IMG/VR virus record: IMGVR_UViG_3300027498_000003
Location: 1 to 60,636 of that record
Length of the DNA: 60,636 nucleotides
Reading direction: 5' to 3' (one strand)
DNA from: a virus
Shown here: positions 10,317 to 32,492 of the stretch, in pieces
Position numbering within the stretch: the first letter of the stretch is position 1
How the letters are laid out: the number at the start of each line of letters is the position of its first letter
Notes under the pieces: model-generated
Databases searched by the model: none
Told to the model about the DNA's origin: nothing
Seen by the model: the letters and a program-made list of their open reading frames with translations, nothing else
Translations under genes and position numbers: made by a program

Positions 10317-11219
10317 ATGGATAAGACAGGAATTGGAGATCGAATGAAATCTCAATACGAACATAGGACTCGGCAGTCCCTCCCGAGAAGAACTAATACT
10401 ATTATTAGATTAGACGGGAAATCGTTCCATACCTACACTGAAGGATTAGATAAACCCTTCGATGAAGGACTAATAGAAGATATACAACAGACAGCCATAT
10501 ATCTATGTGAGAATATACAGGGAGCTAAATGCGCATTCACTCAAAGTGATGAGATAACCCTGTTGCTTACTGACTATGATACTATAACTACTCATGCTTG
10601 GTTTGATGGTAATGTGCAGAAGATAACTTCTACTTCAGCAGGCTATGCCTCAGTTAAATTTTATCAGCAAAGATTACTAAGGGCTGTTGAGGGTAACCTA
10701 CCTATGGATGAGGTTATATTTAAAGATAGTTTACCTACATTCGACTCAAGAGTGTTTACTATAGCAGATAAAGAAGAAGTAGTAAATAACTTCATCTGGC
10801 GGCAACAAGACGCTGAGAGAAATTCTATACAGATGTTGGCTCAAAGTTTATACTCTCATAACGAATTGCATAAAAAGAATACATCTATGCTCCAAGACAT
10901 GTGCTTTGATAAGGGGCATAACTGGAACGATTTACATTTCAGTAAGAAGAGAGGTAGTCTTATACTTAATAATACTTATATAGATAATCGAATAGTAGAT
11001 GGGGATAATATAGAATTTTATAGAAATGGATATGGAAGTTTCAAAGAGCCGTGCTATATGGAAAGGTACCAAGAGTTTTATGAAGCTGAATCTGGTATAA
11101 ACAAATGGAATTACAGACTAATTAAAGATCCCAAAATAAGGACTAAATGGGAAGTAGTAGATACTCCTATATTTACAAAATATAGAGATATTATTAAAAA
11201 CTTAATGCCTATAATATGA
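10317..11219 (+). CDS. tRNA(His) guanylyltransferase Thg1-like protein (3'-5' nucleotidyltransferase)
   Basis: GDRMKSQYE, IIRLDGKSFHTYT, KPFD, TQSDEITL, WFDGNVQK, FDSRVF, WRQQDAERNSI. Confidence 0.92.
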   Translation: MDKTGIGDRMKSQYEHRTRQSLPRRTNTIIRLDGKSFHTYTEGLDKPFDEGLIEDIQQTAIYLCENIQGAKCAFTQSDEITLLLTDYDTITTHAWFDGNVQKITSTSAGYASVKFYQQRLLRAVEGNLPMDEVIFKDSLPTFDSRVFTIADKEEVVNNFIWRQQDAERNSIQMLAQSLYSHNELHKKNTSMLQDMCFDKGHNWNDLHFSKKRGSLILNNTYIDNRIVDGDNIEFYRNGYGSFKEPCYMERYQEFYEAESGINKWNYRLIKDPKIRTKWEVVDTPIFTKYRDIIKNLMPII

Positions 11220-12591: not shown

Positions 12592-13626
12592 ATGGATCTA
12601 ACCCTGGCAGAGCAGTCTAAAGTGTTTAGCTTCTATATGAAGCACCCCATATGCCCCGGCGAGGCGTATATAAGCCCTATACCTGCATCTATCAGAGGTA
12701 AAGAAGACCATTCCCCTTCCTTTTCTATATTCTACAATAAGGAAGGGGATACTTTACTATTCAAGGATCACGGCGGCAATAATGAGAATGAAAGATCCTA
12801 CAATAAGAAGAAGCTCATAGGAGATTGTTTAGTATTCATGGTACTTATGGACTCTAAGGTTAAGTCACATAAACAGGCGTTATTTAAGTACCATACAAAA
12901 ATAAAGGATGCCAACATAGAATATAGTGCAGAGATAAAGAAAGGCGCGAGACGGCGTAATAAGCAAGCTCCTCCTATAATGTACAGAGAAACAAAGTTCA
13001 AAGACTTTGAATTAGAATGGTGGGATCAGTATAACATCTGCAGGAAGCAGCTAATTGACGAATATATATACGGATCCGACGGAATCAAAGTGAAATCTGG
13101 CGTAATCTTTGAATCATCTCCAGAATTACCCACCTTCATATATGATCTCAACTATTTTGATCCTTTAAAAACATATCAGATATATAACCCTGAATGCCCT
13201 AAGGAGTTAAAGATGAAGTGGAGGTTATGGGCCGACGATGAATCTATATCTCAATCATACTACACTACTCTGCCCGAGCAGGGAGAGACGTTCCTATTAG
13301 CATCTAGTAAGAAGGATATGTTATGTATCAAAAATTCGGGATACTTCTCAGACGCCCCCCTATCTGAATCAAATAGATTTAGGTTCCTATCTAAGTACAA
13401 AGACTATGATAGAAGATTCAAAAACAAATACATCCTATTCGACGGCGACAAGGATGGACTTATCTATGCCAAAACCCTATTAGCAGAGATAAAAAAAATA
13501 CACAGACATACCCAGTGGAAAGTAATTAAACTTAATTATCCTACAGGAACGAAAGATGTAGCCGATATAGTTAAAGCCTATGGACAAGACTGCTTATCGG
13601 ATATGTTATACAAACTTAAATTATGA
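12592..13626 (+). CDS. DNA primase (TOPRIM), Bacteroidota-phage type
   Basis: N-terminal SP..RGKEDHSPSF..FKDHG..GDC; TOPRIM-like SSKKDML, ILFDGDKDG, KDVADIVK. Confidence 0.8.
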   Translation: MDLTLAEQSKVFSFYMKHPICPGEAYISPIPASIRGKEDHSPSFSIFYNKEGDTLLFKDHGGNNENERSYNKKKLIGDCLVFMVLMDSKVKSHKQALFKYHTKIKDANIEYSAEIKKGARRRNKQAPPIMYRETKFKDFELEWWDQYNICRKQLIDEYIYGSDGIKVKSGVIFESSPELPTFIYDLNYFDPLKTYQIYNPECPKELKMKWRLWADDESISQSYYTTLPEQGETFLLASSKKDMLCIKNSGYFSDAPLSESNRFRFLSKYKDYDRRFKNKYILFDGDKDGLIYAKTLLAEIKKIHRHTQWKVIKLNYPTGTKDVADIVKAYGQDCLSDMLYKLKL

Positions 13627-13862
13627 TTAAAAAAAAGAAAATAGAAGACATACTCACTAAATGGCAAACGAAAGATTATCGAAGTAAGCAGACAGTAATA
13701 TCTGTACATGATTTTGGGTATGTGGCTGGGGAGATAATTGACGCTATTAACAAGGATACATCATCGCGGCCTATTATAGATCCTACTCCCGAAATAGATG
13801 AATCGGAGTACGTAACTGTGAAAGTCAAGGTAGGATCATACATTATACCACCGGAAGTATAA
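13623..13862 (+). CDS. Hypothetical protein at the degenerate left end of the array
   Basis: Stop TAA lies within GTATAAT; internal ATTATAC..GTATAAT pair at 13842-13863. Confidence 0.6.
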   Translation: MIKKKKIEDILTKWQTKDYRSKQTVISVHDFGYVAGEIIDAINKDTSSRPIIDPTPEIDESEYVTVKVKVGSYIIPPEV

Positions 13863-13924
13863 TACACATTATTAAGCAGTGTATGGGAAATGATAAGTAC
13901 CGTTGCTTCTAAAATTGAAACACA

Positions 13925-14167
13925 ATGATTAAGAATATGATAAAAACAATACTTGAAAAACTAAAGGTCAAGAAACCAAAAAGTAATGGTATCTTATCTA
14001 ATATTAAGTCTCGTGATTATACATTCTATAGAGTTAATAGAACTCACGTTATATACAATGGAGATCATCTTGAACTGATAGGTACTAAAGTAAGGGTATG
14101 TTATTTTGACTATATGAATAATAAAAAGTACTCTCGTAAATATATAGACAATCTTCATGAGACTTAA
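13925..14167 (+). CDS. Cassette hypothetical protein
   Basis: Starts in hairpin loop, crosses ATTAAGTC (14003), stops at the TAA of GACTTAAT. Confidence 0.7.
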   Translation: MIKNMIKTILEKLKVKKPKSNGILSNIKSRDYTFYRVNRTHVIYNGDHLELIGTKVRVCYFDYMNNKKYSRKYIDNLHET

Positions 14168-14246
14168 TGGATAGGTACATACGGTAAGGATGGATGATAA
14201 TGCTGTTGATATGTGCCGTCATAACGAAACTATTAATTGAAAACAA

Positions 14247-14483
14247 ATGAATAAAGAATACCACCTAATAAAAGAACAGACATCTGATGCTCGTGATGGC
14301 ATCATATCTGATATTAGTCGCAGTATTTACGGCTATGTTATTGAGTACAAATTAGAAACCAAGACAGAATATAGCTGGCTGATGTATACTAATCGCATAT
14401 ACACAAGTGAAATGGAAGCTATGAACAACTTAAAATTAGTCACTAAATATGAAGCCAGATTAAGGACTCTATATTACGACTAA
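14247..14483 (+). CDS. Cassette hypothetical protein
   Basis: Starts in loop, crosses ATTAGTCG (14313), stops at the TAA of CGACTAAT. Confidence 0.7.
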   Translation: MNKEYHLIKEQTSDARDGIISDISRSIYGYVIEYKLETKTEYSWLMYTNRIYTSEMEAMNNLKLVTKYEARLRTLYYD

Positions 14484-14539
14484 TGGACTGCGTACATCTC
14501 CCGTCATCTATCAAATTGCGGGAGAGCAAAATAATAAAA

Positions 14540-14707
14540 ATGAAAAAAGAGAATAAACAAAAATGGAGAACTACCGCATGGATGCTAATAGCCACATCAG
14601 CAGGAGTCCTTATAAGGCACACATGGGGAACTGAATATGTAATATCCTCAATAATAATATTAGCGGTAGGTATGTGGCTATATTCCACAGATGATAAAGC
14701 GGGATAG
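14540..14707 (+). CDS. Cassette small two-TM membrane protein
   Basis: ATG after A-rich leader; two hydrophobic segments; lies inside the hairpin loop. Confidence 0.65.
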   Translation: MKKENKQKWRTTAWMLIATSAGVLIRHTWGTEYVISSIIILAVGMWLYSTDDKAG

Positions 14708-14907
14708 GCTTGATAGATTATGGGATGATAGCGTATATTATAAGTAGGTGCAATTCAAACTGATAACCAAGTGTACAGTAGAATGATTGAACAATTCGGA
14801 TGCTAATATCTGAAAATCAATCTGCACTTACTTATAATGGATTGGCGATAACGATTGTCACCTATCAATTTTGAGGGTGGATTTTATAACGATTAAATTA
14901 AAATAAA

Positions 14908-15087
14908 ATGATAAAAATAGCAGTAACAGAAGACCAAAGAGAGCTTATTATAGACGCTTTAAATAACTACTATCACTACTCAAATAACAAAGCTACTAAT
15001 AAAGAGTCCGGTGATATAGAAAAGAAACAATACAAGTCTATAAGAGATAAGTGTAAGCGGTTAATGTCAAGGCTCGACCCCTTTTAG
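14908..15087 (+). CDS. Cassette hypothetical protein, 59 aa (absent from the ORF track)
   Basis: MIKIAVTEDQRELIIDALNNYYHYS...LDPF*, entirely inside the hairpin loop. Confidence 0.7.
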   Translation: MIKIAVTEDQRELIIDALNNYYHYSNNKATNKESGDIEKKQYKSIRDKCKRLMSRLDPF

Positions 15088-15121
15088 CGCTGGCTTGATA
15101 GGTTATAATCTGTTATCGCCT

Positions 15122-15160
15122 ATTATAGTTAAGCGATAGCGACCGTAGGTTAACTATAAT
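15122..15160. repeat. 39-bp palindromic mini-spacer, copy 1
   Basis: ATTATAGTTAAGCGATAGCGACCGTAGGTTAACTATAAT, identical to 19383-19421. Confidence 0.95.
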
Positions 15161-15226
15161 GAGATTGGCGTATGTGCCGTCTTACCCATTTTGAGCGATG
15201 GGATTTATAAAACTAAAAATCAAAAC

Positions 15227-15478
15227 ATGAAATATAGTGCTGTACACAAACAATTAATTGTAACTCCAAAAGACTTGGGAGAGGCTGCGGATTCGATACT
15301 ATGGGCAATGAAAAGGTATAGAGACCTTGCAGGAATACCATTAAAACGAAGTAAGCCAGATAGTCTTGAAGATATAGATTTTGCTGAAAAAGAAATGCTT
15401 GAAGGTCTCGGCAAGATAGGCATAGACTTAGGGGCGAAGTGGGGTTATGAACTCGACCTTAGCGGGCTGGATGGTTAA
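15227..15478 (+). CDS. Cassette hypothetical protein
   Basis: ATG after A-rich leader inside the loop. Confidence 0.7.
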   Translation: MKYSAVHKQLIVTPKDLGEAADSILWAMKRYRDLAGIPLKRSKPDSLEDIDFAEKEMLEGLGKIGIDLGAKWGYELDLSGLDG

Positions 15479-15585
15479 TATGGTCATCATGTATCATATT
15501 ATCAGCTCCGTAGCGAAGCGGAGTTGCTGATAATGGATTGCAGACATGCGGTGGACTTATTAATTAATATTAACAATAAATATTT

Positions 15586-15879
15586 ATGACAGAGCAAGTA
15601 CTTATAGGAGTAATCAGACAAGGTGCAATAGAGCTGAGAGATGAAAAATATCAGTTAGAAAGAAATGGATTGTCAAAAGCAATAAAAGATGCCGTTGATA
15701 GTCTAGAAACCTTAATTAATAAGTCTAATGTCATATCGCCTATTATAGAGAGGGATTGCGTGGAGGCTTGCAAGACTGTAGTAGAATCTTATGAAGGTGA
15801 CGGAATGGAAAATATGGACAATAGAGATCAAGTAATGTACGATACTTGCAAAAAAGCGTTGGCGAATCATTCTCTATAA
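15586..15879 (+). CDS. Cassette hypothetical protein
   Basis: Crosses ATTATAGAGA (15742), stops at the TAA of TCTCTATAAT. Confidence 0.7.
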   Translation: MTEQVLIGVIRQGAIELRDEKYQLERNGLSKAIKDAVDSLETLINKSNVISPIIERDCVEACKTVVESYEGDGMENMDNRDQVMYDTCKKALANHSL

Positions 15880-15990
15880 TGTACAAAGACATCCATCGTC
15901 TGCGAAGCATATGATGTGATCGTCGGTTATTATATGCTGACTCCCACCAATACAAAACTAAATTTTAAACACTTAAAAAATAAAAAAGCG

Positions 15991-16197
15991 ATGGCAAATC
16001 ACACAGAAATTAGATGGAGCTCAGGACAAGATGAATACACGGTATCAGAGATAGAATATATGTTACAATCTCAAAGGGCAATGATATACAACGATATTAA
16101 TCACCTAATACGTCAACAGAAAGGCAGCGGTAAAAGGTCTAAGGAAGAAATAGAGATAATGGACTACCTAAGAGACCCAAGGAAGGTAGAGATATAG
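15991..16197 (+). CDS. Cassette hypothetical protein
   Basis: Between ATTATATGC (15929) and GCATATAAT (ending 16267). Confidence 0.65.
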   Translation: MANHTEIRWSSGQDEYTVSEIEYMLQSQRAMIYNDINHLIRQQKGSGKRSKEEIEIMDYLRDPRKVEI

Positions 16198-16340
16198 GCT
16201 TTTATTTTTTATGCCAAGTTCAACTACAATCTTTAAATCGAAGAACCGAACTTAGCTTGCATATAATGTAGAATTGTAATCACTGTGCGATAGCATGGTG
16301 TATTACATATTATTAACTGCTGTTTTTAAAGTATTTTACG

Positions 16341-16604
16341 ATGAAATTAATATTATGTAGAAAGTGTCAAGACGTGGTTCGGCTGATGCAAGATGAAGTA
16401 AGAACCTGTAAGTGTGGAGAATGCAGTGGTCAATATACTGACGACTTAAACGCATGGTACAAAGGTGAACAAGCTGTCCCATTAGGGTTTGCCAACCACT
16501 CATTAGTCAATGCTGTAGTTAATCAGCCGAAAGAGGGATGGGGAGAAGATTTCAAGGCTTTTGTTATACCCGAATCTTGTGATACTTTTAAAAATTGCAG
16601 TTAA
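16341..16604 (+). CDS. Cassette Zn-ribbon protein
   Basis: CRKCQD..CKCGEC; between ATTAACTGC and GCAGTTAAT, with its stop in the latter. Confidence 0.75.
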   Translation: MKLILCRKCQDVVRLMQDEVRTCKCGECSGQYTDDLNAWYKGEQAVPLGFANHSLVNAVVNQPKEGWGEDFKAFVIPESCDTFKNCS

Positions 16605-16676
16605 TGTCAATGATAACCATAGCGTAACGGGGTGGAGTTATGTGTTATCTATTATTATACTCCGTAAATTATAAAT

Positions 16677-16955
16677 GTGATAACTAAGAGTGAAATACTA
16701 AAAAAAGGGTGGGTGGAGTCCCTACCCGAGTTCCTTATGGTCACAACAGGGGGTATACCCAAGTACTATGTCTATGTAAAACAAAAAGGTAAAAGAATAA
16801 CTATATATAAAATGACCATAGGAGGAGCCTTGATGTGTAATAAAACTTTAAAGATACAAATTAAAAGAGATATAATATTTAAAGGGACTCTTAGTGGGGC
16901 TGAGGACTTAAACAAACTGATGATGATGCTAAGGATAATCCCTTATGGAGTATAA
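16677..16955 (+). CDS. Cassette hypothetical protein (similar to 26037-26417)
   Basis: Between ATTATACTCC and GGAGTATAAT; ILKKGW..IFKG..L..LM..L.I pattern. Confidence 0.7.
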   Translation: MITKSEILKKGWVESLPEFLMVTTGGIPKYYVYVKQKGKRITIYKMTIGGALMCNKTLKIQIKRDIIFKGTLSGAEDLNKLMMMLRIIPYGV

Positions 16956-17037
16956 TGGAGAATTATATCGAGAGGATGAGGCACGAATCTTCTCTGATAT
17001 GTATTATTATATGTCGTGACAACACAAAACGTAAATA

Positions 17038-17250
17038 ATGAAAGTATACGAAATAATTAAGATTACAGGATTAGGAGTAATGGAATGTCCAAGTAAAACA
17101 CATCCAACTGGTATGATATATGACACTAAAGAAGCTGCCCAAAATAAAGCAAATGAACTATGGTTAGAAAATACTACTGACGAAGAAAGAAAGTCTGGAT
17201 GGTGTCCACTCAATTACTCCGTGTCTGAGGTGGAAATACAATCTGCATGA
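17038..17250 (+). CDS. Cassette hypothetical protein
   Basis: Between ATTATATGTC and GACATATAAT. Confidence 0.7.
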   Translation: MKVYEIIKITGLGVMECPSKTHPTGMIYDTKEAAQNKANELWLENTTDEERKSGWCPLNYSVSEVEIQSA

Positions 17251-17324
17251 CATATAATGAAAAATTGTATCTCCCGTCTCATTTTCTTTTTGTGGGAGGA
17301 TTGAAAACTTAAAATATAAAACAA

Positions 17325-17717
17325 ATGACTAAATCTGAATTATTAGAAGATGTAAAATTCTTAGCACAAAGGCAAAGTAGGGCAGGCTCTTTCGGTGGTC
17401 ACGGAGATAGAAGATATGTAGGCAGTAGCAGCAACTCTATTGTGTCAATCGCATATGGCGTAGCTGAATTAAAAGATCAATATATGCCAGGGGATGGCGC
17501 TGATGTACAGAGTTGCATAAATATGTGGACAATACAACTACCTAACCACCGAAAGAAAGGGAAGGCATTAAAGGCTTATCAGTCTGCCATAAATTCCGAA
17601 TGGTATTATAAAAATACATATAGGCAATGTCCAAAATGCGAAGGATTAAGTAAAAAAGAGACTGATAAATGCGATTGGTGTGGGGAGGCAATAGGAAAAG
17701 AAAATGATATGGCATGA
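17325..17717 (+). CDS. Cassette protein with C-terminal Zn ribbon
   Basis: CPKC..CDWC; inside the loop, stop within the right arm. Confidence 0.7.
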   Translation: MTKSELLEDVKFLAQRQSRAGSFGGHGDRRYVGSSSNSIVSIAYGVAELKDQYMPGDGADVQSCINMWTIQLPNHRKKGKALKAYQSAINSEWYYKNTYRQCPKCEGLSKKETDKCDWCGEAIGKENDMA

Positions 17718-17799
17718 TACATATTATTATAATGGATAGTGATAATCACTGCTTTCTTCATCTTTTGAGGGAGGCTTTACTAAAAATTAAATCATAAAA

Positions 17800-18030
17800 A
17801 TGGTAGTTGCTTTAGGAAAAATCGTGGTCGAGATGACCGAGGAGGAATTTAATAAACTTGCTGTAGCAAAAAATAAGCGTGACTTAGTAGAGGCTAAAGA
17901 AGATATAGATAATGGTATTGCCCATGATGATGAATGGGACAAAGCAAATAACGCTTATTGTGCGGTTTATAAACAACTCTTAGAATCAAGAAAACCTATC
18001 TCGACCTTTGAAGAACAATTGTTTATTTGA
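17800..18030 (+). CDS. Cassette hypothetical protein
   Basis: Flanked by GAGGGAGG direct repeats (17767, 18029). Confidence 0.65.
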   Translation: MVVALGKIVVEMTEEEFNKLAVAKNKRDLVEAKEDIDNGIAHDDEWDKANNAYCAVYKQLLESRKPISTFEEQLFI

Positions 18031-18119
18031 GGGAGGGGATAGACGACTTGCGTACTACCGATAATATACTGATGGTAGTCTGAGGATTTTTTGACAGTAA
18101 ATGAAAAACTAAATTAAAT

Positions 18120-18389
18120 ATGAACGAATTATTATTAAGATGGTGGAACGAGGAAAGAAAAAGCTGGTCTGTTATAGATGATACAGATTTATGTGGATAT
18201 GATGATTTATGTGACTTCGCAAGGTGGGTAAACCTAAATGCCAGTCAAAAATCTTCTGTACTACCATCTATTATCTCAGAGAGCGAAGCGAACGGCGTAT
18301 GCTCTGACTGCGATGGCGACAGAATATATGAAGAATATGGCTCTACTTATCCGTGCGAAACTTGTAACGGAACTGGGAAGAGCATATGA
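18120..18389 (+). CDS. Cassette protein with DnaJ-like CxxCxG Zn finger
   Basis: CSDCDG..PCETCNGTG encoded in the ATTATCTC..GAGATAAT segment. Confidence 0.7.
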   Translation: MNELLLRWWNEERKSWSVIDDTDLCGYDDLCDFARWVNLNASQKSSVLPSIISESEANGVCSDCDGDRIYEEYGSTYPCETCNGTGKSI

Positions 18390-18467
18390 GAGATAATGTA
18401 GTTGTGATAAGATGAGTTAAATCCTACTTTGAGGGTAGGCAAATTAGTAAACAATAAAATTAGAAAT

Positions 18468-18662
18468 ATGGAAGATTTTAAGAACCAAATAGTAGGTCAA
18501 CTAAAAGCACAGGGCAAAGAATCTGCTGCTAATGTAATGAAAGGTCGTCATGTAGTAGTAGTAAAATACTGTGAGCAAAAAGGATGGGATATGAACGACC
18601 TATCATTTGATAAAATACTTGAGATTAGGAAGACCGATGCTTGGAAGAACGGTGATGTATAA
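18468..18662 (+). CDS. Cassette hypothetical protein
   Basis: ATG after A-rich leader. Confidence 0.65.
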   Translation: MEDFKNQIVGQLKAQGKESAANVMKGRHVVVVKYCEQKGWDMNDLSFDKILEIRKTDAWKNGDV

Positions 18663-18753
18663 GCGTGGTAAGGATGGATGATATAATGTATGAGTACATC
18701 TCCCGTCTTACTATCATTTGAGGGAGGCATTAAATAAACTAAACAATTTTAAA

Positions 18754-19002
18754 ATGGATAAACCTATAAAATTAATACAAGGAGAAACTTATATCTTCCA
18801 AAAAAGAACATACCCGAATCCAGTAAAGAAACTGAAAATCAGGGAGCTTACGAAGACTTCTATCTATGTCCAAGATGTAGACCAAGAAAATAGCTACAGA
18901 GATGAGTTACACACCTTTAACCGAGAGTGGAAACCAATAGAAGTCATGCCAAATAAATTAATCGAAAGTCTAATGAGGGAGGCTGATAGTAATATGGGAT
19001 GA
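18754..19002 (+). CDS. Cassette hypothetical protein
   Basis: Inside the loop; GAGGGAGGC at 18720 and 18975. Confidence 0.65.
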   Translation: MDKPIKLIQGETYIFQKRTYPNPVKKLKIRELTKTSIYVQDVDQENSYRDELHTFNREWKPIEVMPNKLIESLMREADSNMG

Positions 19003-19118
19003 TGTACGGTATTATAATGCAGCCTAGCGACCCAACGGGTGCATTATAATGGCATGGCGATCATGTTCTGTCTAATTTTTATTAGCGTGAGATATTCCAC
19101 AAAATTTAAACTTGAAAA

Positions 19119-19400
19119 ATGAATAACTGGATTAACGTAAATGATAGGCTGCCTACCATAGGTGATGAGGTTTTAATTATAGACAACGATAGCAGTGTCG
19201 GGATTGCATTTTTAAATAAAGGATTAAAATGGTATGAAGCACAGACGTGGACTTTTGTATCAGGTGATTGGGGACACTACGACAATGATACAGAAGTGGA
19301 TAATAAAGTTACCCACTGGCAGCCGATTCCCGAAGCACCAAGTGAAGAAGTAGAGCAAAGATCAGATGGAATCATATCGCCTATTATAGTTAAGCGATAG
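19119..19400 (+). CDS. DUF551-like phage protein
   Basis: WINVNDRLP...VTHWQPIPEAP. Confidence 0.85.
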   Translation: MNNWINVNDRLPTIGDEVLIIDNDSSVGIAFLNKGLKWYEAQTWTFVSGDWGHYDNDTEVDNKVTHWQPIPEAPSEEVEQRSDGIISPIIVKR

Positions 19401-19421
19401 CGACCGTAGGTTAACTATAAT
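19383..19421. repeat. 39-bp palindromic mini-spacer, copy 2
   Basis: Identical to 15122-15160; both copies are preceded by TATCGCCT. Confidence 0.95.
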
Positions 19422-19480
19422 GGATTGAGTATAAAAATCGTCTATCCTATATTTGAGGATGAGCATAACCAAAATAAATT

Positions 19481-19678
19481 ATGACAGAAAAACAATACAT
19501 AGAAGTAAAAGCACTCGGAACTATAACCGCTGCAATAAATACGCTAAGAGACTTAGTACCAGCCAATCTAACCCATATAATCAAAGAGAGTGAAGCCAAA
19601 AAAACCATAGGTACATTAATGGAGTGGCAAGACAGATTATTTGAAGTTTTACAGATAAACCAAGATGAAGAAGAGTAA
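19481..19678 (+). CDS. Cassette hypothetical protein
   Basis: ORF with A-rich leader. Confidence 0.65.
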   Translation: MTEKQYIEVKALGTITAAINTLRDLVPANLTHIIKESEAKKTIGTLMEWQDRLFEVLQINQDEEE

Positions 19679-19785
19679 AGGGTACAAGTCGCTTATGGTG
19701 GCGGTAGCGAAAAATAATATTGTACATAATGTGGAGTGATAGTGAGAGTCTATTTTTTAATTTAGCGAGAGCAAAAAAAACACAA

Positions 19786-20046
19786 ATGTCAATAGTAAAA
19801 TACTTCATCAAGGATAATGTAAAAACATTCAGTAACAAACAAGCTGTAAACGACGGATGGGATGCGGAACTAAATGAAGAAGCGTTGATTGGACTAATCC
19901 TTGAAGACAGAAGCAATCCTAAACACAAAGTCAAAATCAAAGGATTGAATTACCACTTAGGAACTATGATAGTCCATTGGGAAGAGGGAGGCTGGAACTG
20001 CTTAGATCATGCGGTAGAACAATTTAAGAGGGTTGGCAAAAAATAG
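19786..20046 (+). CDS. Cassette hypothetical protein
   Basis: Inside the loop; stop TAG in the right arm. Confidence 0.65.
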   Translation: MSIVKYFIKDNVKTFSNKQAVNDGWDAELNEEALIGLILEDRSNPKHKVKIKGLNYHLGTMIVHWEEGGWNCLDHAVEQFKRVGKK

Positions 20047-20180
20047 ATTCTCTACTATCACATATTATCATAATGAACGTAGTGAATGACGGTGAGGTAC
20101 GAACTGGATGATAATGAATGGTGATAAGTGTAGTTTTCTATCAATTTGAGTAAAGCAATTTTTAAATCTAAATAAATATT

Positions 20181-20456
20181 ATGAGTCACCACAGGATTAA
20201 GACTAAATACGAAAATGATACAGGTATGGGTATAGTCGAACAAAAGACACTATATATGGACATCAATAATTCTTGCGATGTAGTAACAATAAGGGATGAT
20301 GATGGTAGTGTTATCTATAGCTACGGTGAAGGTAGTAACAACTTTGAAGATGCTCTTATACGACTAATCAAAGGAATGCCCGAAACTGATGACACTATCG
20401 AGCGATGGGATAAGGAAGACCTGTATCTGCACGGAGTGCTAAAGAGGGAGGCTTGA
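20181..20456 (+). CDS. Cassette hypothetical protein
   Basis: Inside the loop; stop TGA at the start of the right arm. Confidence 0.7.
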   Translation: MSHHRIKTKYENDTGMGIVEQKTLYMDINNSCDVVTIRDDDGSVIYSYGEGSNNFEDALIRLIKGMPETDDTIERWDKEDLYLHGVLKREA

Positions 20457-20578
20457 TAGAAAATTATCATCTTATCACATATTATACGGAGTCATTAGCG
20501 TGGCTTCGTGTGATAGGATGATTCCGTATAATGGACTGCGTATAAAATGAGTGCGACATTAAACACTAAAATATAATT

Positions 20579-20869
20579 ATGGAAGAAATAGTCAATTGCC
20601 CTCTTTGTGGGAGGGAGGAAGAATACGGAAATATGTATGAGTACAGAGGTGCTTTATCTTGCGGAGAATGCTTTGAGGAATCACAGAAGAAAAGAGACGT
20701 GGAAAGAGCAGAGGTTATCACTGAAGAAAAATCCAAGACAGATAAATTCAAAGGATTAGACCTAAGTGACAGCACGATAGGTAAGGCTAACAAGCATATA
20801 CTTAAAAGCGATATAGAGATAGCAAAAAAAGAGGGCTTACGAATAGCTAAATACGAAGGTAGAATCTAA
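20579..20869 (+). CDS. Cassette Zn-ribbon protein
   Basis: CPLC..CGEC; inside the loop. Confidence 0.7.
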   Translation: MEEIVNCPLCGREEEYGNMYEYRGALSCGECFEESQKKRDVERAEVITEEKSKTDKFKGLDLSDSTIGKANKHILKSDIEIAKKEGLRIAKYEGRI

Positions 20870-20994
20870 GCATTCATTTTTATACGCTATTATCAGTAAG
20901 CGAAGCGACCCTTTAGGTTACTTATAATGGATTGCGTATAAACTTAGTCTCACCCTTATGCGGGTGGGCGATTAAATAACTTTTAAAATTATAA

Positions 20995-21276
20995 ATGATG
21001 GAATTATACAAAATAGATTCTGGCGAAATAGAATACGTTGCCGCTGAAAGCCTGGTGAAGCTATTCATCTTCTACAAAGAAGAAACTGGCGAAGACTTAT
21101 TAGACATGGACGCTAGTGTAACAAATGTTCATAAATCTAAGTGGCCACACATGAAAATATACGACTCAGATGAAACAGATGAAAATAATGAGCCTCTTTA
21201 TATCCAAACATTTGAAGAAGCCATGAGCGATAAATCATTGCATAAGCCTTGCTTCATAGCATCTTCGGTTTATTAG
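20995..21276 (+). CDS. Cassette hypothetical protein (similar to 31409-31693)
   Basis: Inside the loop; V..S.W...KI and C-terminal IASS/LATT pattern shared. Confidence 0.7.
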   Translation: MMELYKIDSGEIEYVAAESLVKLFIFYKEETGEDLLDMDASVTNVHKSKWPHMKIYDSDETDENNEPLYIQTFEEAMSDKSLHKPCFIASSVY

Positions 21277-21416
21277 AGTTAGGCAAGGGTGATATTAAGT
21301 TTTATACGCCATTATAGTGAGTGCTTCGGGTTGGCATTTGTGGGCTTGCTGCATTCACTATAATGTATAGTGATATGCTCTGTATTTTTTAGATATTTTA
21401 AAACGAAAATAAATTC

Positions 21417-21683
21417 ATGAAAACTAAGCAAGAAATAAAGGAAGATTTATGGTCAGATGCAGAATTAGAGTCTGATGGATGGCAATCAAGAATGGAATAT
21501 AATGAGTTTATGCTAACTCTTGATAAATACGAAAAGGCTCTAAAAAATATGGAGTCATCATCACGTATTATAGACCGAAGGGAACTGTTAGAGGCTTTCA
21601 AAAAGTATAGTAACGAAGCTGATAATGTTTTACACATAGGGGATGATGACATTGAAAAATTCTTAGCCTCTAATAGTCTATAA
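21417..21683 (+). CDS. Cassette hypothetical protein
   Basis: Crosses ATTATAGAC (21567), stops at the TAA of GTCTATAAT. Confidence 0.7.
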   Translation: MKTKQEIKEDLWSDAELESDGWQSRMEYNEFMLTLDKYEKALKNMESSSRIIDRRELLEAFKKYSNEADNVLHIGDDDIEKFLASNSL

Positions 21684-21763
21684 TGTACAGTACATATCGA
21701 GAGTATATTTTTTTGAGTTGCGGAGCTGAACACGTTTAAATAGAAAAAAATTAAATCTTAAAT

Positions 21764-22048
21764 ATGAAAAAGATATTCAAATATGAAATGTCAATCAAGG
21801 AGAAGCAATCAATACAATTACCTATCGGTGCTGATATAATCAGAGTTGATGATGTAGACGGTAGATTCTTTCTATGGGCTATAGTGGCTCCACAAGAAGA
21901 GCCTGAGACTGAAACGAGATACTTAGAGTTCTATAAAACTGGACAAGAAATATTAACTAACACCGAAGATCTAAAGTATATCGGATTCTGCAAACTATTC
22001 ATTATGCAAGAACTCGGATTATATGTCTTTGAAAATATATCTAAATGA
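21764..22048 (+). CDS. Conserved small phage protein
   Basis: KIFKY..QLP.GA.I..LWAIV..TG..YIG..LYVFE pattern. Confidence 0.7.
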   Translation: MKKIFKYEMSIKEKQSIQLPIGADIIRVDDVDGRFFLWAIVAPQEEPETETRYLEFYKTGQEILTNTEDLKYIGFCKLFIMQELGLYVFENISK

Positions 22049-22689
22049 GATACGGAGAATTACCAAAAGACTTAGGATTAGAAAAAGTCAATCCTACTGA
22101 GATGTTTTTCTATCAGTACTTACCAATAAAGCTAAGTGGACAAACTGAGCCTGTGATAGAAAAGCGACTTATGTGCTTGTCTGAACTGATAGGGAATATA
22201 AACTGCCAATTCGTAGCTGAGTATGGGTTAGAAAACTTTGTTAAGCATAATACCTATGTGACAGCAAAACATCAATTCCAAACTCCAGGATGTAGCTTTA
22301 ACAGAAAAGGCTATCACTCTGATGGATTCCTAACAGACGATATAAACTACGTATGGAGTAATAAGCAACCGACTGTATTCAATAGCGGAAAATTCGAATT
22401 AACATTAGACGACTCTATATCTCTAAGTGAGATGCAGGAGCAAGCTGAAAAGGAAAACGAAGTAACTTACCCTAACGGAACTCTACTGAGGCTAAACCAA
22501 TACAACATCCATAAAGTCGGTGAATGCAAAGAAGTAGGATTAAGATTGTTCGTGAAAGTATCCTTCTCTTTAGACAAATATGACCTATTGGGAAACAGTA
22601 AGAACTATCTATTAGATTACGACTGGGATATGCAACAAAGAAAGAATAAAAGAAATATCCCACAATCTAATATCTTAATTAGCTCATAG
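22045..22689 (+). CDS. Putative 2OG-Fe(II) oxygenase-fold protein
   Basis: NRKGYHSDGF (HxD), distal IHKV (His), RLFVKVSFS (Arg). Confidence 0.55.
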   Translation: MRYGELPKDLGLEKVNPTEMFFYQYLPIKLSGQTEPVIEKRLMCLSELIGNINCQFVAEYGLENFVKHNTYVTAKHQFQTPGCSFNRKGYHSDGFLTDDINYVWSNKQPTVFNSGKFELTLDDSISLSEMQEQAEKENEVTYPNGTLLRLNQYNIHKVGECKEVGLRLFVKVSFSLDKYDLLGNSKNYLLDYDWDMQQRKNKRNIPQSNILISS

Positions 22690-22743
22690 AGCTGAAAGTG
22701 GCGGTGTCAAAAAATAATATTGTGCATAACATCCTTTCTTCGC

Positions 22744-22751
22744 TATCTTTG
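22744..22751 (+). promoter_or_regulatory. Bacteroidota -7 promoter box
   Basis: TATCTTTG matches TAnnTTTG, 5 nt before ATG 22757. Confidence 0.45.
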
Positions 22752-22756
22752 TCTGC

Positions 22757-23323
22757 ATGAAAACATTATTTATATTACTATTTCCTATTTTACTTTCATC
22801 TCAGATAATAGAGGTAGATGACCAGCCTATAGATATGTGGGATGAGTACCATTTAATCATATCTCCGAGGGTTACTACTGATCAGTTTGTTTCCAAGTCG
22901 CCGGACGTGGAGGTAAGTTACATAGATATACAGCTCATAGCTGTCATATCTTTTCTATCATCGTATTATGATTCTGATATCTACATAACATCTGCTGGGA
23001 GATCGGCCTCAAATAACCCTGGATCCAGCAAATCACAACACATATACTGGAGAGCAGTTGACTTCAGGATTGCTAACAAAAAGGCTGCAGCTGACTTTAG
23101 AAAACAAATAACTAACAAAGAGGGGGAGGTATTTGAAAGCCTATTGTATATGGGAATAAAGGGATTCGGCGTTTATTCTCAAGGATTCTTCCATATAGAT
23201 ACCCGTATTTTCGCAGAAATGTTTACATTTAACTCAGATTACGGGCCTATGAACTACAATTACTGGACAACATTCTCTTCTAACTATGTTAATTATAATA
23301 ATTCCCCTATATGCACGCATTAA
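22757..23323 (+). CDS. Secreted peptidase M15A-like (Hedgehog/DD-peptidase fold) cell-wall hydrolase
   Basis: Signal peptide ..LLSS/Q; ITSAGRS, SQHIYWRAVD, GFGVY..FFHIDTR. Confidence 0.8.
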   Translation: MKTLFILLFPILLSSQIIEVDDQPIDMWDEYHLIISPRVTTDQFVSKSPDVEVSYIDIQLIAVISFLSSYYDSDIYITSAGRSASNNPGSSKSQHIYWRAVDFRIANKKAAADFRKQITNKEGEVFESLLYMGIKGFGVYSQGFFHIDTRIFAEMFTFNSDYGPMNYNYWTTFSSNYVNYNNSPICTH

Positions 23324-23343
23324 CTTCTACAAAAAATTATATT

Positions 23344-24348
23344 ATGAATCGAATTAAATACTTATATCTAATAGGACTTGTGTTCCTATTTTCTCAATGC
23401 AAAGTTCTTAAGCCTCCCGCGCCTACGTCTCAGCAAGAAGTAGTTACTGCCTATGGCATGTCTCTTGATACTGAGTACGATGTTATGATCACCCCTGAGT
23501 ATCTTATAGATAAAGGTTATGTAGATCAAGAGGATCGCGGCGCTTTATACCTTGCGCAGCGGCAGTGGAGATGGCCTGTAGACAAAACAATCTATATAAG
23601 ACTCAACAACCCGCCTCCGGGCAGGAAGCAGGAGATACGAGAGGTATGCGACCTGTATGAAGCCAAAGCTAACCACAGGATCAAAATAGTACTAGACCCG
23701 CCTGTGGGAGTGCAGGAGCAGCACAGGTGGTCATTCGTACCAGGATCTGCTTGGATGATAATGGGCTCAGTAGTAGAGGTCCTGAACGACAAGACCCGAC
23801 CTACTGGCAATATAGGATTTACAGGGAAGAAGGTATTGTGGCACGAAATAGGCCATATGTTTAACTTAGGCCACTCTCATCAGTGTGGATGTATACCATG
23901 GAATAAGTCATTCATATACGCATATATGGCCGCTCGGGGGTGGAGCCAGGCGCAAATCAACTCTCAGATAATATTCCCAGCCAATCCTGATCTATTCGAA
24001 ATAGAAGGATACTATGAGAACGATTTCATGGGATATGACTATCCTCCCAGCTGGCGAACAGACGGTGTATCCGCATTTGGGCAATTGATATTCTTGCCCA
24101 GTCATGATAAGTATTTCAATAAATACTATCCTCCCAAGGCCACGCCGCCCATAATAGTTACTCCTCCTGACAATGAGAAAGATAATATAATAGCTCAGCT
24201 AAGAGTTGAATTAGATAAATGTAAAGTAAATCTAAAGAAAAAGCAGGAAGTGATCTCCAGAGTAATAAACTCATGGCTATCTGATACAGTACCAGACTTC
24301 ATCGATGTATTCAATGAAGAGTTCTTTAGCCAAATACAACGACCTTAG
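23344..24348 (+). CDS. Metzincin (astacin/M12A-like) zinc metalloprotease, probable lipoprotein
   Basis: LVFLFSQC lipobox-like; HEIGHMFNLGHSH; Met-turn DFMGY. Confidence 0.8.
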   Translation: MNRIKYLYLIGLVFLFSQCKVLKPPAPTSQQEVVTAYGMSLDTEYDVMITPEYLIDKGYVDQEDRGALYLAQRQWRWPVDKTIYIRLNNPPPGRKQEIREVCDLYEAKANHRIKIVLDPPVGVQEQHRWSFVPGSAWMIMGSVVEVLNDKTRPTGNIGFTGKKVLWHEIGHMFNLGHSHQCGCIPWNKSFIYAYMAARGWSQAQINSQIIFPANPDLFEIEGYYENDFMGYDYPPSWRTDGVSAFGQLIFLPSHDKYFNKYYPPKATPPIIVTPPDNEKDNIIAQLRVELDKCKVNLKKKQEVISRVINSWLSDTVPDFIDVFNEEFFSQIQRP

Positions 24349-26036: not shown

Positions 26037-27805
26037 ATGACAAATAGATATTGGACAAACATAATCTTATTAACAATAATAGCATCGATCTACTTATGGG
26101 GGATATTTGGGTGCTTAATAATGAAAGCAAATATTATGGATATAAATAAACAATCTATTAAAGAGCTAGGATGGGAACAAGTACCAAACAGTTCCGTATT
26201 CATAATACACAAACCTATACCTCGTAATATGATGGATGGATATGAGTATGATTACTATTTAGAGATGCTTCCTTTTGGGATAAGGATAGAGGAATATGAA
26301 TCTGGAGGATTCGCGGGAGATACAAATAATACTGTGATATTCGAGGGATCCCCAAAGACTTTACCTAATTTAGAGATGTTGATGGGATGGCTTAATATTC
26401 CTATAAAAGATAAATAACAATGATTAAACTTAAAGTAAAAGTAACTAAAGAGATTCTAAAAGAATCAATGATGTGCGGACATGATTGGTATGAAGGTGTA
26501 TCATCTAATTGTGCTGTAGCATTGGCTATTAGGGAAATATTTCCAAAAGTAAGAGTAGCTCGTCGTTACTTCAGACTATCCCCTAGAGTATCCTCACAAC
26601 ATGATGGTAGGGATTTTATAAACCAATTCGATGCCTTAAGAGGTACTCCCGAGAAGAGATTAGAACTACCAGAAACAGTAGTTACATTAGATATAACAGA
26701 TGAAATAATAGATCATCTATCTACTATGATACCTAACTACGAAGAAGTAGTTAATGCTCAGCCTCATTTAGAATTAGTAACAGTATAATATTATGGGATT
26801 ATCAGATTGTATCGAGTGTTGGGACACCCCTTGCACTTGCGGCCTTGGTTATCAGCATTTATCTGATAAGGATATGGCTAAGTTTATAGCGGGTATCCTG
26901 GGCAAAAGGCCCACAGATAATGCTGTTTATATATTGCTTGACGCTAAAGGGTATGTAATATAATGGCCAGTAGATTCACACAAAGCATTCACAAAACTAT
27001 ATGTAAATTGGAGAAAAAACACTGGGCAGATATTCAGGATAATCTTATCGCCGACAAGACAGAGCAGCTTATGCTTAAAAACATGGAACGTATAGCTCGT
27101 ATTGATTCTCAGGGGTTTCAAGTCGCTACTATATCTAATGGAGAAGTGATAGATATGAAGATTTTAGATGTAAATGGAGTAGAACACAAGGTAGATGACA
27201 CAGATTGTCCCGATAATTTAGTGTGTGCTAACGGTCAATGCGTAGAGAAAGCTAAGGAGACCCCGAATTACATAGGAAGGAGATACAAGAAAGGGCACCT
27301 GACTGTTCAAGTAAGCAATCACGAAGAGGGTAAGTTTACCATGGTTATTACCCAGGATAGCAGTGATTACTATGGTCGGCGTATTGGGCATGCCATTATT
27401 ATATCTGAAAGTAGTTTGAAGGATTGGGAAGAGGTAAAATATGGGCAATGTATGAAGGCTAAACATGCAGAACCTGCTTTTGAGTTCGATAGTAGGAGAT
27501 GGGCGGAGGTCGTTCCTGAGCCTATCAATAAACTATCTATAATGTTTGAGGTAGGAGAAGTTTGGTATGATAGAGGTGCTGACAAACTTATGGTCTACAA
27601 AGGTATTGCCTCTAAAGATATACTTAAATTTGTCGTAATGCATTGCCTCAGTTCTATCTCGTTCCATAATGACAGAGCTAAGACTTTCACATATGTAGCC
27701 TCCTCTATGGAAGAGTACCGTAAACCTATATCTAAATCTTGGCTAACCAAGATCAAAGATTACATCTACAACCTTTTCCATATGGAAGAATCAGAATATG
27801 TATAA
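26037..27805 (+). other. Hypothetical genes (26037-26417, 26420-26788, 26963-27805)
   Basis: Packed ORFs; 26420 has the SNCAVALAI pattern seen in small phage proteins. Confidence 0.65.
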
Positions 27806-27866: not shown

Positions 27867-28742
27867 TTAATACTGATAGTTTGGATTATATCTTGTCAGC
27901 TTCAATGGCCAGTTAACCTCACCATTCTTTCTTATAATAGCCAATTGATCTTCTGTAAAGCATACCATACAGTCGGGGTGGCTGTATCCTGCATAGTTCT
28001 TTATGTATATTTTACGCTCTGCTTTACTTAAAGTGTCACCAACCCCTGGTAAGTACTTGCACCCTGGCATTACTGTACCGTGCCCAGCTCCCGGCACAGG
28101 CGTATCTGGAGCCCAGTCACCGGTATAACAGCCGTTTCCTGATATAGAACCCCTTCTGCTATCGAAAGGGTGTGCAACGCCGAATAAATGGGCCATCTCG
28201 TGGACCAGGATGTTACTCTCAACTTCAGATAAACGTATAATTATTATAGTCCTGTTCTCTGAGGGATTATCTATCTCAGGTATATCACCCGCGATACCCT
28301 TAACACTCCCTGGCTCTCTTTCAATAGATAAGAATGTATCGTCAGGGATAACTACGATATCAATAGCTTCAAAGCTATTGTATGTTCTAAAAATCTCTAT
28401 ATGATCGGTGAAGTTATCAGGGCCTAAAGTTAAATCCAGGTGAGTCCGGGTGCTGTTTGTATTTTTAAATACTATAGGAGCCTTGGAAAACCCTTTGTTA
28501 AGGGTAGCTATAGCTTGTTTTTCTGAGAATTTGGGGGGTAACGGCGTATTAGTTAGGTTAGTAAATCTAATCGCCTGAGTTAAGGTGTCCTGCGACATAT
28601 ACAAACTCTCATCTTCTAACACATTTACCTCACAAGTATATACGAATACTTGCTCATTTTTTCTTATCTTCACTTTCTGCGTAAAGCAAGAGCTTAGCGC
28701 AACGCTTAGAAATAAGATTATAAAAAAACGGGACATAATCAT
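27867..28742 (-). CDS. Peptidase M43 (pappalysin/ulilysin-like) lipoprotein
   Basis: LSVALSSC lipobox; HEMAHLFGVAHPF; GD..PDTP; NYAGYS..CMVCFTEDQ. Confidence 0.8.
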   Translation of the reverse strand: MIMSRFFIILFLSVALSSCFTQKVKIRKNEQVFVYTCEVNVLEDESLYMSQDTLTQAIRFTNLTNTPLPPKFSEKQAIATLNKGFSKAPIVFKNTNSTRTHLDLTLGPDNFTDHIEIFRTYNSFEAIDIVVIPDDTFLSIEREPGSVKGIAGDIPEIDNPSENRTIIIIRLSEVESNILVHEMAHLFGVAHPFDSRRGSISGNGCYTGDWAPDTPVPGAGHGTVMPGCKYLPGVGDTLSKAERKIYIKNYAGYSHPDCMVCFTEDQLAIIRKNGEVNWPLKLTRYNPNYQY

Positions 28743-30686: not shown

Positions 30687-32370
30687 ATGACTATATATAA
30701 AAGTCAAGAAGAGGCTATAACTAATAGGAAATGTAAAGATAGATACATTATAATAGGAGAGAGTGTGTCCGCTCATTGTTGTTTTAGTTATAGCATAATA
30801 GACACATCTAAAGGTGTAGAGAGTTATGGACACTACTACATCGGATACGTATGTGAAACTTTTGAAGAGCCCGAAGCTCTGCTAATAGCTAACTCTCTTA
30901 ACCATAGATAAATATGATATACGAAACCAAAATGTACAGTGCTAAATGTGATCACTGCCAAACTAAATGGGTAGACGAACATACTGGATTTGTAGCTTTC
31001 ACAGATGAATCATTTATGAAGGATACTTTATTAGATAGTGATTGGATAGAAGGGGGAGGGGAGCTCGGTAAAGATGGAGAATATTTCTGCCCAGAATGCT
31101 TCGCGTATGATCGCCTTGGTAACCCTATTCTAAATCCTTTTAGAAAAGATTTTGTAACAAAACTACGTAACAAAACGCGGAGTATACTGAATGAAGTATG
31201 AAATACAATTTTAAATATTTTAGAAGAAAATCAGGAATAGAAGTATGGGTCTACACACGGCTCAGGGGTTGGATTACTGTTGATGACTATAACGAGTATT
31301 TAGCTTATCAATTTGATCCGCAAGGAACTTCAATAGAATGCTATGTAAATCTTGAGGGTAAGCGAGTCACCTAACAATGTCTGACAAATATTAAAAACAA
31401 ATATAAAAATGAAAGTATTCAAATTTTTACGAAATGGTAAGTCATACACCATATCATCAGATTCAAAAGAAAATGCTCAACAGCACCTAAAAAATGAATA
31501 CGGTGTGAATATTCCCAACTGCTTTGAAGTGCCTGAAAGCGAGTGGGATTTAAGAGATATAAAAATGTTCGTTGATAACGATCCAAGTAAAGATAAATTC
31601 TACACATCAATTAGAGAGCAGATACCACGATCTGGAACGCAATTATTGGCTACTACTGAACCTGAGATGTTCGGTTATCCTAACGGCGACTAATGTGCAA
31701 GGATAGCGATAACCGCTGTCAAGAATAAAGAATGAATATTAAACACAAATAAAATGTCAAGTAAATGATACAATGGCTAAAATCAAAATGCAATTATCTA
31801 CTATCTATTACTAATTGCCGTACTCCCCCGAAAGGCTTGCACGAAGAGTGGCTACTTACTAACGGATATGACACATATGGCTTTGTGGAAATCATTGAGG
31901 ACTCACTAAGAATAGCACGATGGAATTCAGATGGTAAAAACGATATAAACAACTGGGTGGTCGAAGTGAAAGGTAGCCCGCATCCTTGGGGTGACCAAGA
32001 TGATGTTTGGGTTACAACAGGCTTCAGAATCCGCTACGTTCACGAACTGAAAACTTTATTGGAAATGCATGAGTATGACTCTTAGTTGTTAGGTTTTAAA
32101 CACTAAAATTAAATGAAAAAGGAATTAGTAATTATAAAGGGGTACATCAATTCTATATACGGATTGGTATCAGAAGGGGATAGATACCATATATTAGAAA
32201 TGATAGATGCATTAATTGAGCACTGCGATGATAGTCAAAAACATTCTGTACTGTCAGCTGATATCATAGCGGAACAAAGTGAAGCGACGGCCCGTTGTCT
32301 TTCCGAAGATCATACAGATAGCATAAGACTATTTAAAAAGTGTAAGGTTTGCGGCCACACTAACACATAG
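30687..32370 (+). other. Small hypothetical genes (30687-30911, 30914-31201, 31409-31693, 31765-32085, 32113-32370)
   Basis: Packed ORFs; the last three carry remnants of cassette hairpins. Confidence 0.65.
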
Positions 32371-32492
32371 GCAGACTGGATTATAATTCATTTATATCAG
32401 CGCATACTCAGAAAAAGAACTAAATGATGGTTGGAGCGATATAAGGTGGCACTGGAATTAGCAAGTAAAAGTTTCGGATAGGGCTTGTATAC

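Follow-up and report, generated by a model that had tools for sequence, protein, structure and literature searches.

The window analyzed here, a stretch of 60,636 nt, comprises the first 60.6 kb of the linear virus record G000 (126,546 nt, 74% complete). Among the best matches of the DNA polymerase of this record are crAss-like phages, and of the public runs, a marine metagenome matches best. An array of integron-like gene cassettes with an AAT/ATT core is located between the primase region (12592-13626) and the endolysin gene (22757-23323). It is composed of 23 units (13863-22729) and a left-end remnant, and its hairpin sites are found on the plus strand only. A second assembly was identical across 21 kb in total, including the entire array, and a third showed two differing positions, both outside the array. 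Since these assemblies agree, the array is not an assembly artifact. No DNA match to the array was found among cultured phages.

Architecture of the array

Each unit starts with the T of a TAA^T junction and can be divided into two halves. Half Y (48 to 471 nt) leads from the junction to an inner ATT box and comprises a loop framed by a left and a right arm, and half X (8 to 339 nt) extends from the ATT box to the next junction. We counted 23 TAAT junctions, from 13860 to 21681, in which the next base is G (21 of 23) or A (2 of 23). The 24th junction, at 22727, is TAAC, the sole AAC core of the main array. The core reads AAT at every junction but that one (23 of 24) and ATT in all 19 inner boxes. 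In 19 of the 23 units, both the ATT box and the right arm could be recognized; in the other four, which start at 17733, 18397, 19421, and 21684, they were lost or decayed. A preliminary description of this DNA had proposed about 23 units of this layout, which was borne out; all 12 of the ATT-box coordinates that it quoted were recovered, and its two example arm pairs both fold as described. It did not mention that the hairpin loop measures 48 to 471 nt and frequently contains the gene.

The same description held that the ATT box is complementary to the end of its own unit and not to that of the preceding one. We found this to be correct: in 18 units, the mean complementarity was 9.3 nt to the unit's own end versus 5.2 nt to the preceding end, and none of 100,000 permutations reached 9.3. 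When the ATT boxes were picked by arm pairing alone (13 units), own-end pairing was 8.6 nt, compared to a null value of 5.9 +/- 0.34. We also employed a site finder that accepts either AAT/ATT or AAC/GTT. Applied to both strands of the 126.5-kb record, it detected 10 sites, all of the AAT/ATT type, all on the plus strand, and all within the array. Shuffled versions of the array gave a mean of 0.09 sites and a maximum of 1 with this finder.

In the circular form of a unit, the arms and cores are predicted to combine into a single long stem whose unpaired spacer is asymmetric. The predicted fold of the plus strand was more stable than that of the minus strand in 15 of 19 units. In 17 of 19 units, the base 11 nt ahead of the ATT box is a T, which is often unpaired in the predicted folds. 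Unpaired bases and spacer asymmetry are the kind of feature that directs strand choice in attC sites (PMC2727003). An Rfam search of the array gave no match, and exact-pattern scans of various kinds returned nothing or chance matches only.

Two kinds of repeats were seen within the array. A 48-nt palindromic tail is exactly duplicated (15114-15161 and 19375-19422). In addition, several gene-bearing loops have a G-rich direct repeat of 9 to 10 nt immediately inside each arm (18713-18730 and 18974-18985; also 20445-20455 and 17763-17776), and it looks as though loop genes were inserted or swapped through it.

Comparison with related phages

AAT/ATT sites were also present in G001, a complete 63-kb phage that encodes RecT and SSB, and in further marine contigs (L005, L006/L109, L032, L104, L105-107, L108, L110-112, and L116-118), the last of which represent a 43.8-kb siphovirus-type phage. 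At least four different backbones carry such arrays, with some of the short contigs possibly belonging to strains of a single lineage.

The preliminary description had proposed that units are shuffled at TAA^T, and neighboring units do change exactly there in related contigs. L005 and L109 have 757 nt in common (98.7% identity), ending on TAAT and followed by different units, each homologous to a different unit of the window. L032 and the window share 481 nt at 99.6% identity (unit 11), ending on a junction, after which the next unit differs. One whole unit, with both ends on junctions, is common to L005 (2613-3066) and L104 (4316-4769). Since these units are 98 to 99.6% identical, the exchange events are recent. 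L105 and L116, which are strains of one phage, have a common 848-nt backbone that starts at an AAT core and different last cassettes before that core, which behaves as expected of an attI site with polarized insertion.

Exchange was not confined to the junctions. A strict automatic rule yielded 40 block ends, of which 8 coincided with junctions, 5 coincided with the ATT box, and 4 lay close to start codons. The other 23 were located elsewhere and include near misses and cases of gradual divergence. The junctions received more block ends than the 7.4% expected (P = 0.008), and junctions and ATT boxes together accounted for 13 of the 40 (P = 0.0025). As judged by these comparisons, TAA^T is a genuine but nonexclusive breakpoint. 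They support the view that the units are mobile and exchanged at TAA^T, and on this basis we regard mobility at TAA^T and the AAT insertion site as established.

Swaps of half-units at the ATT box gave rise to in-frame chimeric proteins. G001 carries a fusion between the right arm of unit 16 and the X half of unit 22, and the resulting protein (P0016) has the same C terminus and a new N terminus. In L116, the arms of unit 18 carry another X half. A third level of modularity was observed in one ribosome-binding frame that accompanies different genes, swapped at the start codon (window 15991, L005 623, L105 499, L109 1411, and L116 8301). Joints found in a comparison of contigs from two runs were considered as circles and rejected, as they came from related contigs at 85% likeness.

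Cassette genes and a second cluster

Every called cassette gene is encoded on the folding (bottom) strand and has the same orientation as the replication genes. Nine are placed in the hairpin loop, four in half X, and six run from Y to X through the ATT box, while the rest belong to decayed units (Table 1). In each of the six open reading frames (ORFs) that run across the ATT box, ATT is in frame (P = 0.0014 by chance). Seven ORFs end on the TAA of a junction (13862, 14167, 14483, 15879, 16604, 16955, and 21683), exactly as had been noted before. Most cassette products have no family, the exceptions being DUF551, DUF7352, and a weak Lar match. A role of the ATG of TAATG in translational coupling was considered and found to be weak, with only 2 of 21 junction ATGs opening a long frame. 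Outside the array, genes at 26793-26842 and 43779-43900 match cassette genes of L006/L109 (88% and 70%, respectively); therefore, cargo also seems to enter or leave arrays.

A second, decayed cluster extends from about 31370 to 32401. It contains a mixed AAC/AAT remnant near 31675-31700 and a right-arm remnant at 32228-32261, and it ends in a 14-nt sequence (in the 32384-32401 region) resembling the AAT-type insertion site of L105/L116.

Table 1. Coordinates of the array, its units, and the end of the second cluster in the window
Feature	Position	Strand	ATT box	Remarks
Whole array, 23 units and left-end remnant	13842..22730	+		Genes and folding hairpins on the same strand, the integron "bottom" strand
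Left-end remnant, ATT box to TAA	13842..13862	+		Decayed; ORF 13623-13862 ends on junction
Unit 1	13863..14167	+	14003	Decayed arms; ORF 13925-14167 through box in frame, ends on junction
Unit 2	14168..14483	+	14313	Decayed arms; ORF 14247-14483 through box, ends on junction
Unit 3	14484..14837	+	14737	ORF ending at 14707, within hairpin loop
Unit 4	14838..15159	+	15122	Strong arms; loop ORF 14908-15087; 39-nt palindromic tail, same as unit 16 tail
Unit 5	15160..15533	+	15498	Loop ORF 15227-15478; gene has 89% match in phage contig L108
Unit 6	15534..15879	+	15742	ORF 15586-15879 through box, ends on junction
Unit 7	15880..16266	+	15929	Short, attC-sized hairpin; ORF 15991-16197 outside hairpin; frame holds other genes in L006/L109 and L116
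Unit 8	16267..16604	+	16312	Short hairpin; ORF 16341-16604 ends on junction
Unit 9	16605..16955	+	16654	Short hairpin; ORF 16677-16955 ends on junction
Unit 10	16956..17257	+	17006	Short hairpin; ORF 17038-17250
Unit 11	17258..17732	+	17726	471-nt hairpin, 8-nt tail; ORF 17325-17717 in hairpin; 99.6% copy in L032 with different next unit
Unit 12	17733..18064	+		Right arm not recognizable; ORF 17800-18030
Unit 13	18065..18396	+	18270	ORF 18120-18389 through box in frame; same arms around different gene in L005
Unit 14	18397..18686	+		ATT box lost; ORF 18468-18662
Unit 15	18687..19049	+	19011	Strong arms; loop ORF 18754-19002; 40-nt palindromic tail
Unit 16	19050..19420	+	19383	DUF551 ORF 19119-19400; right arm recurs in L033 and L116 with other tails
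Unit 17	19421..19729	+		ATT box lost; ORF 19481-19678; tail frame homologous to AAC-type tails of P12002L; promoter match at 19448
Unit 18	19730..20114	+	20064	Strong arms; loop ORF ending at 20046; same arms, different tail in L116
Unit 19	20115..20531	+	20481	Strong arms; loop ORF 20181-20456
Unit 20	20532..20927	+	20889	ORF 20579-20869, weak match to Lar (restriction alleviation), below Pfam cutoff
Unit 21	20928..21363	+	21311	Strong arms; loop ORF 20995-21276
Unit 22	21364..21683	+	21567	ORF 21417-21683 through box; X half recurs in G001 (protein P0016)
Unit 23	21684..22730	+		Left arm only; AAC-core end at 22727-22730; ORFs 21764-22048 (DUF7352) and 22045-22689
End of second, decayed cluster	32262..32401	+		Tail module 96.8% identical to G001, diverging right after TAA 32384-32386

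Implications of the AAT/ATT core

Among described attC and attI sites, no sequence other than the AAC/GTT triplet is conserved, and a natural matched change of the core was judged quite unlikely by the authors of a mutational study of IntI1 recombination (Frumerie et al. 2010, PMC2811028). In that study (Table 4 therein), ATT x ATT recombined at 1.0 of the wild-type level, whereas ATT x GTT reached only about 0.003, a roughly 300-fold drop explained by the need of the first core base to re-pair after strand exchange. Our literature searches, which covered few subscription journals, retrieved no report of a natural ATT-core array.

The preliminary description had envisaged a recombinase whose core shifted from AAC/GTT to AAT/ATT. 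The core is indeed AAT/ATT, but the recombinase need not have changed its specificity, because IntI1 uses ATT fully if both partners carry it. If the IntI1 rule carries over, the AAT pool would require no new enzyme but would be cut off from AAC cassettes. It also follows from this matching rule that the AAC end at 22727 would be a poor attI for AAT units. This end lies next to a promoter of the Bacteroidota type (TTG box near 22720, -7 box at 22744), one of two such promoter matches, the other being at 19448. The frame of the 22727 end terminates in AAT at 19727, in G001, and in L116. We consider it more likely that the 22727 site is a decayed or promoter-constrained cassette end.

T:G hybrid sites, which combine a GTT inner box with an AAT junction, were found in L104 (near 1360) and L109 (near 332); they could be intermediates between core types or products of decay. 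Restriction-site avoidance was examined as a cause of the C-to-T change and rejected, as TAAC and TAACG are not depleted (observed/expected ratios of 1.09 and 1.04).

Search for a recombinase

We searched G000 (74% complete) for a tyrosine recombinase with PF00589, TIGR02249, the P0021 protein, and a 120-member family hidden Markov model applied to six frames, and none was found. None was found in the complete phage G001 or in 20.5 kb of L116 either. Therefore, G001 at least must borrow a recombinase or no longer recombine site specifically. The IntI-like enzyme that had been suggested as a search target in the rest of the genome was not found there, and reordering of the accessory-gene library by the phage itself finds no support, as the sequenced 74% contains no detectable recombinase. 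Two candidates were discarded. An isolated 291-residue minus-strand ORF (27867-28742) was peptidase-like. For a 24-codon ORF after the AAT site in L105, considered as a recombinase remnant, 142 of 300 shuffles scored as well against the N termini of the family.

In the AAC phage G004, the AAC array ends directly before a gene for a 264-residue tyrosine recombinase. A conserved AAC-core motif lies 42 to 57 nt upstream of genes of this small recombinase family (five loci). The AAT site of L105/L116 and window positions 32384-32401 resemble this motif, with T replacing C. The small recombinase has hundreds of relatives, with homologues in 129 of 401 sampled Bacteroidota genomes, and its nearest structures are Xer/XerA. 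It scores 102 to 132 bits as an IntI, for which the cutoff is 265, and lacks the approximately 48-residue IntI insertion used for single-strand recognition. The AAT-type insertion motif had 3 matches in the 401 Bacteroidota genomes, none near cassette sites or a recombinase, and no AAT sites were found within 1.5 kb on either side of 30 recombinase loci in Bacteroidota genomes. In one Bacteroidota genome (L088, about 600-730), an AAC/GTT site of the same geometry is located less than 1.5 kb from a homologue of the small recombinase.

Relation to integrons and phage cassette arrays

One geometry filter picked both AAT sites (in G000, G001, L005, and L032) and AAC sites (in P12002L, G004, L050/L051, and a bacterial locus), and long gene-bearing loops occur in AAC-type sites too. 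The Polaribacter phage P12002L carries a published cluster of attC sites lacking integrases (CALIN; Qi et al. 2023, PMC9892861), one site of which, P12002L_attC2, was recombined by IntI1. Like the array described here, it belongs to a marine Bacteroidota phage, no integrase was found in cis, and its genes are on the folding strand; its AAC/GTT sites lie on the coding strand. The arm offset and the unpaired T at -11 are also the same, and units 17 and 23 have tail frames homologous to its own. In contrast, the present array is AAT/ATT rather than AAC/GTT and has 23 units versus a few, and within the AAT pool, relatives have an AAT-core insertion site and phages demonstrably swap both units and half-units.

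Classical integrons (IntI, attI, and attC; Bouvier et al. 2009, PMC2727003) share with the array a strand-asymmetric hairpin with an unpaired central spacer and an extrahelical base on the inner arm. Core complementarity to the unit's own end, a crossover position after AA, polarized insertion, and a G after the core triplet in most sites are likewise common to both. However, the three conserved bases are changed here, and the arm offset is 3 to 4 nt, compared to about 1 nt in attC aadA7. The unpaired base is a T at -11 instead of a G at -9, and the loop can hold a whole gene. Whereas integron cassettes carry promoterless top-strand genes driven from Pc, all genes here are on the folding strand and are read on the bottom strand. 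No IntI was found, as the 74% complete G000 gave no PF00589/TIGR02249 match, and the candidate enzyme is without the IntI insertion; the core is AAT (23/24) and ATT (19/19) in place of AAC/GTT. What the array does have of an integron is the asymmetric hairpin, at noncanonical offsets, the pairing of the inner box with its own end, and exchange exactly at the core, next to other breakpoints. An attI-type end site is present in the related L105/L116, while in the window the main array ends in an AAC site and a look-alike occurs at 32384-32401. The array works like integron cassettes, and it falls outside the integrons in its enzyme, its core, and its gene orientation.

An engineered ATT-core attC/attI1 pair (Frumerie et al. 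2010, PMC2811028) bears the identical G1/C3' to A1/T3' change in both hairpin positions and in the partner site. Those were laboratory mutants used with IntI1, whereas here a natural pool spans several phages. The array also resembles the AAC/GTT arrays of Bacteroidota phages such as G004, which display the arm offset of 3 to 4 nt, the unpaired T at -11, units with a gene in the loop, shared frames, the same gene orientation, and a terminal site at the right. They differ in the core base, in the variant of the insertion site, and in the small Xer-like recombinase that follows the terminal site in G004, none having been found in G000, G001, or L116. The array is an AAT/ATT variant of this Bacteroidota-phage cassette system.

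Other features of the phages

A phage-encoded tRNA-His guanylyltransferase (Thg1) is located at 10317-11219 of the window. Several zinc-metallopeptidase-like proteins (M43/M10-like and astacin) are encoded near the arrays in both AAT phages (window 23311-24348 and 27867-28742; L033 13646-16834). CTAG is strongly avoided in both (146 versus 878 expected in G000; 14 versus 380 expected in G001). Avoidance of GATC is much weaker in G000 and G001 than in two AAC phages, a hint of a different host group. A 460-nt gene is 97.6% identical between G000 (119430-119889) and G001 (21024-21482), that is, between a crAss-like phage and an unrelated 63-kb phage; this match indicates recent exchange and probably a shared host. 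G000 also contains an IS200/IS605-like element (108785-110312; L004), which, as judged by sequence, comprises TnpA and TnpB.

Discussion

We think it reasonably probable that the locus is an integrase-less array of integron-type cassettes, belonging to a Bacteroidota-phage branch in which a whole pool uses the AAT/ATT core and is probably served by a recombinase in trans. In our model, the plus strand would fold during replication, and a tyrosine recombinase would cut between AA and T. The unit would be excised as a circle in which a core stem of 8 to 11 bp is restored and which could fold as a dumbbell; such circles would insert at an attI-like site or at another cassette site. The enzyme would most likely be the approximately 265-residue Xer-like protein found right behind AAC-type arrays, or a close relative. 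It might be supplied in trans by a co-infecting phage, a prophage, or the host, or be encoded in the missing 26% of G000. By the IntI1 rule for the first core base, the AAT pool would be mostly closed to AAC cassettes and form its own compatibility group. At the ATT box, wrong-strand or short-homology recombination would provide a further exchange point, by which N- and C-terminal halves of the small proteins are shuffled in frame. We infer the circles, the single-strand chemistry, the identity of the enzyme, and the insulation.

Several observations weigh against this model. No recombinase was found beside any AAT array (G000, G001, and 20.5 kb of L116), and 23 of the 40 block ends fall at neither a junction nor an ATT box. 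Units had been described as circularizable, yet the assembled contigs of two runs, which drop rare forms, contained no circular junction. Under the IntI1 rule, the AAC end of the main array should refuse AAT cassettes, and this end does not resemble the attI motif of the family. The existence of T:G hybrid sites implies that insulation is not absolute. Moreover, loops of 200 to 470 nt may fold poorly in vivo, and given the missing IntI insertion, the transfer of the IntI1 rules to the small recombinase is an assumption.

In a rival reading, the same cassette system would be served, in the AAT pool, by its own dedicated recombinase with altered core recognition, residing in an unsampled phage or host. 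The near purity of AAT across several phages and an insertion site in L105/L116 that is similar but not identical to the AAC-type motif are in line with this idea, as is the 24-codon ORF behind that site, at the distance at which the recombinase gene begins in AAC phages. However, this ORF is no closer to the N termini of the family than its shuffles, no such gene was found, and IntI1 uses ATT unchanged; we consider a dedicated enzyme unlikely. Alternatively, the sites might be fossils or homology anchors, with units now moving by RecT/Erf-type short-homology recombination at junction, arm, and ribosome-binding frames and the hairpins persisting as RNA elements or by descent. The many breakpoints at start codons or within frames fit such a view, together with the RecT and SSB of G001, the loss of the ATT box in four units, the decayed left end, and the lack of a recombinase in cis. 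Yet most units have kept own-end pairing over 100 to 340 nt and the strand-specific unpaired T, neighbors of units 98 to 99.6% identical change at a common core of only 4 to 6 nt, insertion in L105/L116 is polarized at one fixed site, and Rfam gave no match. These features make fossil sites quite improbable to us. A third possibility is that the units move as double-stranded DNA, either as invertible segments or as small transposons with inverted ends, in line with the inverted TAAT/ATTA cores that bound the two halves of each unit. This appears very improbable: no inverted copy of any half was detected in the window or related loci, all sites are on one strand, no target duplications flank the junctions, and the only transposase noticed in the genome, an IS200/IS605 TnpA (G000 108785-109156), is unlinked to the array.

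Returning to integron-type cassettes mobilized in trans, a broader picture is possible, although we would not rely on it. Marine Bacteroidota phages may harbor two or more mutually insulated cassette pools, one base pair apart at the cut site. The AAT pool, with its own insertion site, might be common to unrelated lytic and siphovirus-type phages that borrow a recombinase in trans. A second site-specific cut at the ATT box might build chimeric proteins from frame-standardized halves, and hairpin recombination might be carried out by an enzyme without the IntI insertion.

The natural occurrence of a pool with the one alternative core that is fully active in the laboratory suggests that compatibility groups can arise within integron-type systems, and detection tools would miss such pools if they rely on the canonical core. 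The hairpin sites, the AAT insertion site, and the candidate enzyme family make up a testable set with which to ask whether folded single strands can serve as substrates of a recombinase that lacks the IntI insertion, and they offer a natural orthogonal pair for synthetic gene shuffling. If true, our model would account for the exchange of small accessory genes among unrelated phages and for the origin of new chimeric genes.

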